A DNA stretch of 64,000 bases from a virus (IMGVR_UViG_3300025030_000046:32001-96000), one strand, 5' to 3'; positions 35,863-52,501 are shown, counted from the stretch's first letter. Notes: generated from the letters alone by a model not told the origin. Numbers and translations: made by a program.

Positions 35863-38800
35863 TTAACCATCTACAAGCACATCTTCGTCTGTAAAATAAG
35901 GTTCTATTGTAATAGTGATTTCATTTACCTCAAAATCTTCATGCTCAATCATTTCTGGATGCTTTTCTTTCACGATGTTTACCGCATCAATTCTATCTTT
36001 CGCTGAAAGCACTAAGATATTAAATCTTGTTCTTTTGAAAGATACTACATATTTCAACTATTTATCACGCCCTCTCTATTTAATATGTTTTCTCTGATAA
36101 AATCAATAAAATTTTCCTTTGATTGTTTTGGATCGGTAGGATTAATAATCTCACATAGCTCGTACCAAATTATAGGCTGCATTTCATTTAATCCTGATGC
36201 AAATTTAATTAAATTGTTTTTAGCCTCAGTGGTTTTAATAGGGTTTAATTTTGGTATCATATCCCACCATGAAAAATGTAGCTTTTGTGAATTGTCTAGC
36301 GTGGATTGTATTGTGTTGATTGTTGTGTTTAATTGCTGCATAAATAACCTCCAAAACATTATTAATATAGGTTAATTATATTTCATAACCAGTCGCATTA
36401 AGTAGAATTTTGGCTAAATGGTTCGTTTTTGATTACATAAATCTTTAAAATTGTCGTTCACATCAAAAATCGTGCAACATGCAACAATTGTAATATATTA
36501 AGTAATGTCATAAATTGTCGAATGTATGAACTTCATTATTTGATGCATTATTTTATTTTTTAGTTAATTATATTATATTTTAATCAAACTGCTAATAAAC
36601 CACCATGTAATTTTGCATCTGCCATTTTCTTTTCTAACACTTTAACATAATTGACACCTTTATTTATCCGTCTGTGTAGAGCATTTCCCACGTAAGGTTG
36701 CGTTAATAATAGTTCGCTATTATCTTTTATGAAAGCCGTCAACTGATTCAAAATTGCTACCTCTTGTTGCCATCTACTATTTACAAATTCTAATTTAGTC
36801 ATTTATTTGCACCTCATTTTGTATTATATTTTAGTTTATAAACTCATTGAAATTGTTATTTTATTGCCACTTTATTTTTTGACCACATTTAAAACAGTAA
36901 ACATGTTGGTCTGAAATCAATCTTTCTCCACAATTACAATAACCTATTTTAGCATTTGGAATATATTCATCTGCTATATTTATTGTTTTGGATATCTGTT
37001 TATTTAATGCATCTATAGCAATTTCAATATGCTCAGCCGTACCATAATACCCCATATGCTCATCAATATTTCGTCTATCACTTTCTAATCTTTTTATTGT
37101 GTCTTCTATACTTTTAATATGCTTTAAATTACTCATGAAAATTCCTCCCATTTATATAAAATCTATTTTTTGTTACAATGGTTTAATTTTGTTTATTATT
37201 TTTCTTGCTTCAGGCTTCATGGAGTAATTACAAACTCCTCTCTCTGTTAATGCCCTAAGTTTACAGTTATTTTCTTTTTTACAGGTATAGCACGCTTTCT
37301 TTTGAGTATCTATTTGTATTCTATAAATATCCGTCATTTATTTCCTCCTTCTGAAACCCGTAACCCTTGCTGTTACTGGTCTACAAATACGACAAAATAC
37401 TGGTTTATTTAATCTCATCTTCTTTAATTTTTTCATTGTTTCTCCATGTTTCTATAATAATCTTATTACAATAGCTAAAATCAGATACTTTAAAACTATA
37501 AGCCTTTTCTTTATCTGTTCCAACCCATTCATTATTACTTTCATTATACAAACAAGCAACAACAATATAAATTATCATTTGCACCACTCCTTACGTTAAA
37601 ATGTTGATTTTATAATATTATTCATAAGTTGACCAAAAAGTTGTTTTAACATTATTAAAGCTTACGTCAATCATATATCTTTGCTTAAAATAATTTATTA
37701 TAAGATCATGGAATTCTTCTGTTGGGTTAATAATAAAACTTTCTATAAATCTTCTAGAAGATAATGTAATGTCTACTATATTTTCATTTTCTCTCTTTGA
37801 TAATATAATTATTGAGTTACAGATTTCCATATGTTCGTTAAATTTGTCTATCATTTCTATAGTTATTTCTTTTTGCATATTAACAACTCCTTTCAATAAA
37901 TCGTTAGTTTCATTTAATTTATTTATAAAATTCAAATCCCTTTTCTTTACAATAATCTTCAACCCATTTCGGAATTTCCCATATCTGTTCATCAAAATTA
38001 AGACGCTCAACTGAATATTTTTCAATTAAATATCCACATTTCCTACATGCTTCTGCTTTCCAATGGCAACCACCCTCAAAAACATCCACTTCTTCAGAAT
38101 CATGATTACAATCATCTGGAATATCAAAATCATTATTATCCCAATGCTTTGCAACTTCTTCAAAAGATTTCCTAAGTTTAGGAATAAAAATATCAGAACA
38201 TGCATTAAATTTTAGATGCATTATAGTCCCATCATTAAATTTTACTAGACCATTAAAATTTGCCATATCATTCACCTCTCTTAATAAATATCCCAATTTA
38301 TTGCAATTCTTCAATATGTTCTTTTATCCAACTTAAAAACAAATCATAATCTCTTTCATTTATATAGTCATTATCTATTGCCATATTTACCCACCATTCA
38401 GGGACATCTGTTATAAGTATATCTGAAAAGTTCTTTTTAATTTCTTCTATTACTAATCTAAAACTATGAATCATTTTAATCACCTCTTTAATCAATTTTA
38501 CCATACACTTATTTACAATAGAATAGATTTTTTAATCAAACTTTTCTAAATAACTCAATCTATTTTTCAACCATTTTTCATATGCTGTTATTGCATAATT
38601 TAGTGCCTTGCTAATATCTTTAAATTGTTTTGTTTCAATCTCAAGACTCTTTTCACTATCGTCATCAGGATATACTACCCAATAATTATCTTTATTGGAT
38701 TCTGTGTAATTATTAAACCAAAAACCATCTTCATTTCTTGTTATAGTTATTGGCAAATCCCAAGCAATTTCAGTATGAATATATCCTTTAGGATAATTAC

Positions 38801-50695: not shown

Positions 50696-52501
50696 TTATT
50701 TTAAAACATTTCTAATTATTGCAGCCCTTTGCCAAGTTAGTTTATTTTTCATCCATAAATAGAATGTTATGTAGTCTATTCCTATTTTTTCAGCAACTTG
50801 AAACCATGTTAAATTTTTTAGCTTTATTTCTTTTTCAATTTCATTATTTGGATACATTTTATTACCTCCTAAAATCCATATCAAAGTTATATTTTATTAA
50901 AAATTGGATATTTTTGTTCAATTACATTGCTGAGTATTTTTGAATATTTCGCATTGTGGAAAATTGCTGTGCATACTGTTATAAACCTTGCTTGATTTTC
51001 TGAAAATGCATTACCATTGTTTAATTTGTTATCAAATAAACTTGATAACCACACTTTATTTGAATCAATTCTTGTATATTTCTCTTTTTTAGGTAGTAAT
51101 AAATGCCAGTTATTTTTGATTACGTCCGAATAAACCATTTTTTCCCCACTCTCCTTATCTGTTATTTGTTATACTGCTAATAATTCATTTAATATTTTTA
51201 GATCTGAATTATCCCAATTTAGCTCGATATGGTTTAATATATATGGTTTGTATGTTTCAATATTATTCTTAATTGTATCAAGATAACCGCTATTATTTTG
51301 TCGTGGGATAATTCTATTTTCATTTATAAAAAACATATCAAATAAGTTGTAAATAACCGCTATACCATCATTATTATATTTTGTTTGTATTTCTTTTTTA
51401 ATAGATTCTATTTTATCCCTATATGTTTTTATTTCTTCTTGTTTTTTGGTTTCTTCTTGTTGCTTTATGCCTCTGTTATAGTAAATCTCAATTGTAGTTG
51501 TGTTCATGTTAATAAAAAATTTATCAAGAAATAATTTTTTCCAATATATGTCGCAAGTTTCGTTATGCAAATAAAATAATATTTTTTCAACATAATTTAC
51601 TATAGATACATATTCCTTTTTATCATACGCCATATGTATATTATTAGCCTCATATATAATACTATTATTGTCTGTATTTACTATTTTAATATCTGTTATA
51701 ATGTCATATGTTTCATTTAATGTACTGTTATATTCTGCAACTTTTGCAATAATTCTATAATTATATTCCTCATATATCCCTATAAATTTATTATCATGCA
51801 ATGTTTTAGTAATCATATTGATAAAATCTCCTTTTCATCAAATTTGTTATACTGCAAAGAATAAATACGACCTGTTATACTATATTATATGTTTTATATT
51901 TTGCTTTTATAACTGCCAGAAATTTCTATTTGTTAAATATAAACATATAATATTAATTAATATTGATTCTATAAAAATATATGCTATAATATTCTTGAAT
52001 ACTTTTAAAAGCTTTTTGCTTTTTGGCTTGTTATAATTTACAGGATTATAGCAAGTTTTTTCTATTAATGCATATATAGTCATTAGTTTTTTATTCTCCT
52101 TTCGTTGGTATCTTTTTACGGCTTGTGTGGTTTATTCCTTGCAATTTTTACGTTCTATGGATTGCATAATTTTATATTTTGCTTTATGCAATCTAACAAC
52201 ATAAAAATGTAATTTTATACACATTCGCCAGACTCAAGTATATCAAATCCAGTTTCTACCATAAAATTGCTTCTGCTCTTTAAAATTATTTATTTATTAA
52301 AAAAATTGCAGTATCCTTTACTTCAAATTCATAATTAAAAATTACATTATTCTTATAATTAATAACAAAAGTAGCCATTTTACCATAATAACTTTTTATG
52401 GAACTAGCTGGAATTTTATAGCCCTTATTAATTGCAAATTGTATCATATTGTCATTAATGCAATTTATGTGTAATTTTTTTGACACCATTAATTCAGTCA
52501 T
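50696..52501 (-). other. Small hypothetical ORFs, including an HTH protein (50696-50857) and a 215-aa ORF (51169-51816)
   Basis: QVAEKIGIDYITFY HTH-like motif; ORF track. Confidence 0.6.

Follow-up and report, generated by a model that had tools for sequence, protein, structure and literature searches.

A strictly oriented short word is concentrated over one early gene block of SPbeta-like phages and selected against outside it

A short asymmetric word, TATAACAG, is densely repeated in one orientation over a single block of leftward early genes in a distant relative of phage SPbeta. It was found in a stretch of 64,000 nucleotides, called the window here, which comprises bases 32001-96000 of the 139,239-bp virus record IMGVR_UViG_3300025030_000046 (the window phage, G000); the record is circular, with its final 100 bases reappearing near its start in the whole-record assembly. 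The motif is real, conserved and under selection, and the same arrangement occurs in at least five relatives, in which copies have arisen independently in orthologous genes. Selection acts on the nucleic acid, since the copies occupy two codon phases as well as intergenic DNA and their counts exceed those of synonymous shuffles. It has also purged the word from the co-directional replication and lysogeny arm, and the reversed word from the late genes. The reading that we favour, at a probability of about 0.38, is that the copies together form an array of asymmetric sites in the DNA, with a directional effect on the transcription of this operon.

The word is confined to one strand of a single domain

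On the + strand of the window, where the word reads CTGTTATA, all 30 copies lie between 38408 and 51879; there is none on the - strand and none in the first 38 kb. An earlier note on this DNA, made from the sequence alone, had claimed about 30 same-orientation copies over this interval with none reversed in the domain and none in the first 38 kb, and each of its 30 positions was recovered exactly. Shuffling the window 100 times with dinucleotides preserved gave 4.14 copies on average (standard deviation 1.84, maximum 10) and never 30. The strand of the 13.7-kb domain is expected to hold 0.7 exact copies at zero order and 0.8-2.5 under Markov orders 1-3, so the previous estimate of under one copy was fair. 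The remainder of the record adds no copy on the + strand and has two exact copies in the opposite orientation, at genome positions 125183 and 126627.

One-mismatch variants, previously said to be many, are real but specific. Words with at most one mismatch number 73 on the sense strand of the domain against 61 in the remaining ~50 kb of the window, and the enriched ones are NATAACAG (A 6, C 3, G 3) and TATAACAN (A 6, C 5, T 1). The selected core is ATAACA, with T favoured on its 5' side and G on its 3' side, that is, [T]ATAACA[G]. In the domain this core is found 64 times in sense and 8 times in antisense. The information content covers 7-8 positions, and no further context around the motif was visible in the 65 sites of G000 or in 156 sites from four phages.

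The 65 copies of NATAACAN were then assigned to genes and gene junctions. Intergenic DNA or the edge of an open reading frame (ORF) holds 21 of them, though non-coding DNA makes up just 13% of the stretch. Inside ORFs, 18 are in phase 0 (Y-N-x) and 26 in phase 2 (I-T-x), and none is in phase 1, in which a TAA stop would arise. Synonymous shuffles that preserve both protein sequence and codon usage, 300 per test, put the expectation for the domain ORFs at 17.6 +/- 3.6 copies; 40 were observed, a count that 0 of 300 shuffles reached. Copies are also enriched just upstream of Shine-Dalgarno sites, at distances of 9-37 nt, and several are fused to them in the form TATAACAGGAGG, among others at 41043, 42410 and 46319. 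The earlier note had described copies that were intergenic, fused to Shine-Dalgarno sites and inside ORFs in different frames, and had concluded that they were not protein-driven; both statements hold.

A second junction word, AAAATATAA(T/A), lies 10-25 nt upstream of many Shine-Dalgarno sites in window 36000-52100. It sometimes adjoins the motif and resembles a -10 element.

The word is depleted downstream and its reverse is depleted in late genes

Profiles of k-mer enrichment and strand bias along the genome placed the word on that strand in the domain only, with depletion downstream. In the 64 kb downstream, the sense strand has 8 copies of ATAACA where 37-58 are expected, making it the second most under-represented of 1665 6-mers, and it has no ATAACAG where 6-11 are expected. 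The downstream ORFs of G000 contain 5 copies against 32.3 +/- 5.0 expected, and none of 300 synonymous shuffles was as low. The sense purge is also seen downstream in G004 (5 vs 19.1, 0/300 shuffles as low) and in G001 (16 vs 24.2, 10/300 as low).

In late genes it is the reversed word, TGTTAT on the late sense strand, that is missing. Its counts are 6 against 15.5 expected in G000 (0/300 shuffles as low), 0 against 4.6 in G004 (0/300), 5 against 14.6 in G001 (1/300) and 7 against 14.5 in G005 (5/300). Pooled over these four, which are the motif-carrying phages with a late arm available, 18 copies were found where 49.0 were expected, a ratio of 0.37. The sister words TGATAT, TGCTAT and TGGTAT gave late-gene ratios of 1.01, 1.13 and 0.87, and TGTTAT itself gave 1.21 in the controls, SPR and G002. 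Avoidance of an extended -10 element was rejected as the cause, because TGTTAT alone is depleted among the four TGNTAT words.

Seven of the 8 stray reverse-oriented ATAACA copies in the late arm sit at genome 108000-116000 (76000-84000 in window numbering). The GC content of this segment is 0.335, compared with 0.29-0.31 around it, and it may have been acquired recently.

The arrangement recurs in relatives while individual sites turn over

Relatives were collected as 15 loci through the N6-adenine methyltransferase encoded in the domain, and two more through a scan for a pattern of two TATAACAG copies. G004 has 93 copies of ATAACA in a 16-kb domain (10 in the other orientation), and its ORFs hold 50 against 18.9 expected (0/300 shuffles). 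All 52 same-strand copies of ATAACAG in G008 lie at 2.8-17.9 kb, in a domain that abuts the early/late divergence. In G003, 16 of 17 TATAACAG copies, all on one strand, fall at 1.5-11.6 kb (ORFs 30 vs 10.2, 0/300), and in G001, 8 of 12 fall inside 2 kb over and after the methyltransferase gene (ORFs 15 vs 7.2, 0/300). G009 has 9 copies over its LPD29 and methyltransferase genes and six tandem copies in a leader, and G005 and G002 have weaker clusters. The tandem array of G009 (L189 7175-7372; G009:C1:37175-37372) consists of six units of 37-39 bp, each opening with ATATAACAG and each also holding a second conserved stretch, AAAATAT. It is located in a non-coding leader before a small hydrophobic ORF; the word is invariant in it and the spacers have diverged.

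The methyltransferase gene is in the cluster or at its edge in G000, G001, G002, G003, G004, G005 and G009, and directly precedes the cluster in G007. Gene content of the domain is otherwise hypervariable among relatives, the methyltransferase and LPD29 genes being the only shared ones. Codon alignments of these two genes showed that most sites are lineage-specific and were created either through codon choice (TAT AAC AGx vs TAC AAC AGx) or through amino-acid replacement or insertion. In the LPD29 gene of the window phage, several copies arose by phage-specific replacement or insertion (alignment columns 306, 479 and 519). It is the density of the sites that is selected, not their position. 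The earlier note had proposed to judge the motif by its conservation at synonymous sites of homologues; the motif as such is conserved, and its individual sites turn over.

A scaffold of Sporosarcina globispora DSM 4 (L053) has its copies at the same positions as the G001 locus (L001), so that G001 is that prophage or a near-identical one. Neither SPR, a Spbetavirus, nor a Brevibacillus prophage (L056) has a motif cluster or a depletion, and the homologous region of SPR has no enriched polar word; the methyltransferases of both are 60% identical to that of G000. At least 118 viral contigs have two nearby TATAACAG copies, most of which reflect chance, tandem repeats or protein repeats, and G008 and G009 were the only further true cases among the matches listed. 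Rejected candidates include L097, L151 and L175, whose copies are same-frame protein repeats, and L135/L161, whose copies are in one phase only.

Metagenome contigs, for which 4 DNA runs of one groundwater study were listed, showed a population that is mosaic in the domain; the joints between contigs, with sides of 20-41 nt, are untrustworthy. In run X3, the depth was 12.8-17 at 43367-50894, which covers the LPD29 and methyltransferase genes, as against 34-39 for other long contigs, and many contigs break at gene junctions within the domain. The lower depth and the breaks at junctions indicate that co-occurring strains share the flanks and differ in their cassettes.

A more distant relative carries a second word in the homologous stretch

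In G007, whose methyltransferase is 41% identical, a different word, CGGAAAAT, is clustered in the homologous stretch just after the methyltransferase gene. Of its 15 copies on one strand, 12 fall between 2.2 and 10.7 kb of the 107 kb, both between genes and, in three frames, within them. The ORFs there contain GGAAAAT 12 times against 3.8 expected (0/300 shuffles), and downstream the word is mildly depleted (7 vs 12.5).

Other polar words were examined and set aside. In an Oscillospiraceae contig from a metagenome-assembled genome (L057, 5100-14500), a longer unit, GACAAATTCATTT ... TAGCCGGTTGAACCGGCAGAAAGG ... ATG, stands before many genes in the neighbourhood of the methyltransferase homologue; it is a different kind of junction repeat. 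The word AAAAACAT of L058 is often directly followed by G, completing an ATG, and was read as start-codon context. The word GAGCAGGA of L008-L010 is found in the same places in three close loci and was judged by eye to be codon-driven (GAG CAG GAx).

Genomic setting of the domain

The window phage is a distant relative of SPbeta, and its sole DNA-level match in the phage collection was Bacillus phage SPR, with which it shares gene order. To the right runs the late arm, with genes for terminase-like, portal, tape-measure and tail proteins. The leftward arm begins with a tyrosine-recombinase-like gene and a YonV-like SF2 helicase gene, followed by a 1.7-kb gap, the motif domain and homologues of two SPR genes that gene order identifies as YopQ and MrpR; beyond the latter come ligase, DnaB-like helicase, Pol III alpha, NrdD and serine integrase genes. 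About 40 small ORFs make up the domain together with the LPD29 protein and the DUF4942/Dam N6-methyltransferase (Table 1).

Table 1. Features of the window discussed in the text
Feature	Position	Strand	Remarks
Motif domain	38408-52035	-	30 exact TATAACAG (38408-51879), 42 ATAACAG, 65 NATAACAN, all sense to leftward genes
Sigma-70-type promoter-like site (TTGCAA, 17 nt, TATAAT with TG)	52569-52597	-	consensus scan
Terminator-like hairpin and T run	35848-35880	-	2.5 kb past last motif copy; likely end of tagged unit
Non-coding gap, 1.7 kb	52502-54233		upstream of domain; terminator-like hairpin 53955-53918 (-)
N6-adenine DNA methyltransferase (Dam/MTS and DUF4942)	47052-48641	-	Pfam
LPD29-domain protein, 649 amino acids	48731-50680	-	Pfam
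YonV-like SF2 (DEAD/ResIII-type) helicase, 406 amino acids	54234-55454	-	homologue of SPR spr_89
Downstream arm, part in window	1-38400	-	MrpR/YopQ-like, ligase, DnaB-like helicase, Pol III alpha, NrdD, serine integrase
YopQ and YopR/MrpR by gene order (homologues of SPR spr_116, spr_117)	33343-35600	-	first genes past tagged unit
Start of late arm	58122-64000	+	CoiA-like nuclease, 349-amino-acid protein, then terminase/portal/tail beyond window

The domain may correspond to a single transcription unit, running from the putative promoter at 52597-52569 to the terminator-like hairpin at 35880-35848; both calls come from consensus scans. The promoter-like site precedes the first small ORF, 52286-52501, and is the likely start of the tagged unit; the promoter scan gave 180 matches compared with 152 in shuffles, which is weak evidence. 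TTGACA-type promoter-like sites follow beyond the hairpin, at 35802 and 35662. The first genes past the unit include a homologue of MrpR, which is described as a tyrosine-recombinase-like master repressor of SPbeta in the sections of PMC10516654 on this protein.

The methyltransferase gene contains 5 copies of NATAACAN (2 of them exact TATAACAG), all in phase 0, and the LPD29 gene contains 6 (3 exact), all in phase 2. Pfam confirmed both genes, as the earlier note had proposed; its label for them, typical leading-region genes, is an analogy, and the trio of YonV-like helicase, LPD29 protein and methyltransferase is also present in SPR. That note had further let the domain end at the 1.7-kb gap, which is nearly so: the last motif copy is ~620 bp away from the gap, with two small ORFs between. 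The domain starts 5.4 kb from the early/late divergence. Its polar tag on a first-entering or early region is supported as a selected tag confined to the first leftward unit, the term first-entering standing by analogy only.

The gap contains direct repeats of TATATTAATA type at 53083, 53146 and 53176 (spacings of 63 and 30 bp) and numerous AT-rich inverted repeats, and no Rfam family matched it at E up to 1; it may serve as an origin, as a pac site or as a region of operators. The helicase beside it resembles the YonV_C clusters (Atlas features 0.99, structure TM 0.92), in which 15-30% of the members bear ResIII/DEAD annotation, and a literature search on the name YonV turned up nothing on its function. 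Of ten domain proteins scanned, eight had no match in Pfam or PHROGs, and the Atlas gave nothing for a 215-amino-acid protein. The CoiA-like nuclease that opens the late arm (58122-60069 region) matched CoiA_nuc in Pfam at E = 1.7e-26, and the 349-amino-acid protein of the same arm showed weak matches to sigma-70 region 4, below the cut-off of Pfam. The sole Rfam match in the window was a skipping-rope RNA (RF02924; 17327-17467, - strand) in a non-coding cassette, with 57.1 bits against a gathering threshold of 36.7, and no tRNA was found in the window. Contigs from three metagenome runs have an extra G after position 40249, in or near the small ORF 40157-40312, which may be an indel error of the record or a variant.

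A proposed directional array on one operon

We propose that a dense array of asymmetric binding sites lies within the transcribed DNA of the first leftward early/accessory unit, where a phage-specified factor would recognise the sites and act directionally on RNA polymerase at this one operon. The factor might block or release elongation, in the manner of mycobacteriophage stoperators, or load or start polymerase, in the manner of short phage promoters. The array would give the operon an on/off class of its own, and for this reason the word would be excluded from co-directional replication and lysogeny units that need separate control; the reversed word would likewise be excluded from late genes. 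That the reader is a protein and encoded by the phage, that it affects transcription, and in which direction, is what we infer.

This proposal has several points in its favour. The extent of the domain matches that of one putative transcription unit, and the asymmetric sites are aligned with transcription, at 30:0 for exact copies and 64:8 (G000) and 93:10 (G004) for ATAACA. The depletion of the reversed word in late genes, taken with the neutral sense count there, fits poorly with a reader that works on RNA alone and favours a direction-dependent DNA element. The array of six copies in the G009 leader fits as well, as do the word alleles, and by analogy the specificity of the word may vary as an immunity type does (TATAACAG vs CGGAAAAT).

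Other results weigh against it. No protein family follows the motif when all G000 ORFs are profiled by BLAST against 9 relatives, and no reader was found in this way. A YonO-type RNA polymerase is encoded by G001, G002, G004, G007, G008 and SPR, without correlation with the motif, and was not detected in G000 or G005; BLAST profiling and the YonO search thus yielded no dedicated sigma factor or polymerase common to the motif phages. With 44 of 65 copies inside ORFs and one copy per ~210 bp, the density of the array far exceeds that of known stoperators or phage promoters, and a start site could hardly fit beside the copies that are fused to Shine-Dalgarno sites. The bounds of the unit come from consensus scans. 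Downstream sense copies are not depleted in G005 (21 vs 20.7) and just 14 vs 16.7 in G003. Sense copies in late genes are neutral (33 vs 35.0 in G000; also 12 vs 11.1), which requires an extra assumption if the array acts on transcription. The late depletion over the four phages is concentrated in one codon phase, with 8 reversed copies against ~34 in phase 2 and no depletion in phase 1 (8 vs ~8.9). Finally, reversed stoperators are inert in mycobacteriophage L5 according to the stoperator passages of PMC9283540, so the late depletion fits an initiation-type element better than a roadblock. A sigma-A promoter was rejected as the identity of the word, as no -35 or TG context is found in 156 sites and the last -10 position is C.

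Two promoter-like or operator-like elements outside the SPbeta family and one within it invite comparison. The T4 late promoter, TATAAATA, is short and lacks a -35 element, and some 40-50 copies are spread over ~170 kb, all before genes. Like it, the word is a stand-alone AT-rich 8-mer that is direction-dependent on DNA and needs genome-wide specificity; it differs in having 42-65 copies in 13.6 kb, mostly within ORFs. Stoperators provide the nearest precedent: as described in part of PMC9283540, those of Cluster A mycobacteriophages (L5 gp71-type) are numerous (>20 in L5), asymmetric, transcription-oriented repressor sites in transcribed DNA, and their specificity differs between related phages. 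They are, however, 13-mers in short intergenic spaces of both arms, and inert when reversed (same passages of PMC9283540), whereas the word has 7-8 nt, is placed inside ORFs in two thirds of cases (44/65), occupies one operon only at about tenfold higher density, and is purged elsewhere. The late depletion of reversed copies argues that, unlike a reversed stoperator, the reversed word is not inert. The element SPBRE is likewise a repeated regulatory element, of the same phage family, and a homologue of its reader MrpR is encoded just past the tagged unit; as portrayed in the sections of PMC10516654 concerned, it has 15 bp and occurs at ~10 promoter regions genome-wide, compared with 7-8 nt and 40-90 copies in the genes of one operon. 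SPR, a Spbetavirus, is without the pattern. The word was thus rejected as an SPBRE/MrpR operator on grounds of length, copy number and placement.

Alternative readings

The word might instead be read on RNA. T4 RegB cuts GGAG in early mRNAs, often at ribosome-binding sites, for timed shut-off, and UAUAACAG on the early polycistronic RNA could similarly be recognised by a RegB- or MazF-like factor, an endoribonuclease with sequence specificity or an RNA-binding protein, that shuts off or processes early messages, while simultaneous middle messages avoid the word. We consider this unlikely, though far from negligible. It resembles a RegB target in being short, in lying on the sense strand of early messages and in its frequent position beside ribosome-binding sites: its copies are sense-only, frame-independent and enriched just 5' of Shine-Dalgarno sites. 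The purge from co-directional middle genes alongside neutral late sense copies fits a factor active early, a single-stranded word of 7-8 nt without structure or flanks suits RNases and RNA-binding domains, and the six-copy array of G009 lies in a 5' leader. RegB's GGAG, by contrast, is the Shine-Dalgarno core itself, and the word is separately enriched inside ORFs. If transcribed sense alone mattered, there would be no reason for the reversed word to be depleted in the late genes of 4/4 phages (18 vs 49), nor does RegB predict such counter-selection; the choice between a DNA and an mRNA signal, which the earlier note had left open, tips towards DNA on this evidence. Scans of 10 domain proteins recognised no RNase gene. 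The host MazEF system is tied to the SPbeta lysis-lysogeny switch via YopM/MazE in the part of PMC10516654 that treats it. A one-way signal for DNA transactions at a pac-proximal, first-entering end, acting as Chi-like control of a helicase-nuclease or as a terminase or translocase signal, is another explanation, about as probable to us as the RNA reading. Copies on the motif strand are over-represented in the domain and too few in both arms, regardless of gene direction, and those on the other strand are neutral in the domain and the late arms; by under-representation, ATAACA ranks 3/1810 in the downstream arm of G004 and 4/2404, 4/819, 7/2507 and 6/2639 in the late arms of G000, G004, G001 and G005. 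The pac site of SPbeta is mapped between yonR and yonP, at the early/late divergence, in the relevant part of PMC8270828; the domain abuts this divergence in G004 as in G008, and a YonV-like SF2 helicase is encoded beside the domain. The clustered Chi sites of LLS and MD8, lambdoid phages that lack a recombination module, are similarly, as presented in part of PMC12315714, polar octamers in 20-32 copies, nearly all in one orientation and clustered near the DNA end that a helicase-nuclease can enter (LLS has 20/23 actively oriented, with half lying in the terminal 22% of its genome; in Pseudomonas phage MD8, 32 to 0). Chi is, though, a word of the host and abundant in it, and the 5.7-Mb Sporosarcina globispora genome, which hosts G001 and not the window phage, has 220 copies (122 + 98) against 297 (153 + 144) of the reversed control word; a host Chi or KOPS was rejected for it, and a host Chi is unlikely as a form of the Chi-like protection suggested before. 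There is likewise no over-representation of KOPS/SRS kind in Sporosarcina, where the strand preference, in part of the listing, is at most of the control word's scale. Unlike Chi, the word is shared by relatives (one host known), a sister phage uses another word, and copies outside the cluster are purged, which protection of the Chi type would not explain. Where genes of the early arm are inverted, the motif strand has 5 copies against 5.5 expected (6.9 kb, low power), and the cluster of G001 is ~20 kb from the divergence.

Recognition by the co-located asymmetric N6-adenine methyltransferase, possibly together with the YonV helicase in a Type III-, ISP- or BREX-like system, appears quite improbable to us. 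An asymmetric word of 6-8 nt is typical of such methyltransferases, and the complement of ATAACAG is without adenine, which would put a methyl mark on one strand only, as a strand-specific epigenetic tag. The gene is in or at the edge of the cluster in seven genomes and directly before it in G007, the weaker cases G001, G002, G005 and G009 concentrate their copies on the LPD29 and methyltransferase genes, and a ResIII/DEAD-like helicase and a methyltransferase are neighbours; an asymmetric 5-7-bp word beside a methyltransferase and an SF2 helicase, as in Type III/ISP systems, is thus present. Yet the methyltransferases of SPR and L056, at 60% identity, come without a cluster, and G008 with its 52 copies has no methyltransferase homologue in its (incomplete) contig. 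With a Type III system the opposite orientation should be purged, yet ATAACAG occurs 8 times on the other strand against ~11.5 expected, there was no avoidance of inverse site pairs, and a nuclease domain was found in neither the YonV-like protein nor the methyltransferase. Crossover or hotspot sites that shuffle accessory cassettes, with copies elsewhere purged because direct repeats would delete essential DNA, would suit the hypervariable gene content of the domain between relatives, the differences within it among co-occurring metagenome strains with the many loose ends of run X3, a same-orientation purge that is stronger than the inverted one, as deletion versus inversion would have it, and the two tyrosine-recombinase-like genes flanking the region. 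We nonetheless regard this as highly improbable: sites are selected inside conserved genes, which recombination would destroy, of ~35 contig breaks, just 4 come within 4 nt of an exact copy, and these fall on gene junctions in any case, and selection of second order would hardly produce so strong a purge. Chance, base composition or a repeated peptide can account for many-copy contigs such as L097, L151 and L175, and deserves practically no credit here, being refuted by the shuffles of the window (0/100) and of synonymous codons (0/300), by the copies in two frames and intergenic DNA, and by recurrence at non-orthologous positions in relatives.

A possible address code for a hypervariable block

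Among the matches listed by literature searches, nothing described this word, nor any polar word in SPbeta-like phages that is restricted to one operon and purged from the rest of the genome; a search for the literal octamer returned no phage title among the matches listed. The word tags whichever genes occupy the block, and copies are selected even at an amino-acid cost. A possible but doubtful wider reading is that SPbeta-like phages use an operon-address code, in which 40-90 copies over the early accessory operon, erased elsewhere, are read on DNA by a phage factor and exist as exchangeable alleles. If true, this would amount to a new regulatory or physical identity for a large shuffling gene block, independent of promoters at its edges. 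In large temperate phages, genes for anti-defence and host takeover gather, and are gained and lost, in the early accessory region. The purge, together with the costly gain of copies, implies a reader with strong fitness effects that is undescribed for the SPbeta family. The second allele, CGGAAAAT, represents a natural swap of specificity, and the prophage of Sporosarcina globispora DSM 4 offers a culturable entry point. Identifying the reader would explain how a hypervariable block can be controlled as a unit, and could provide a portable operon tag for engineering.

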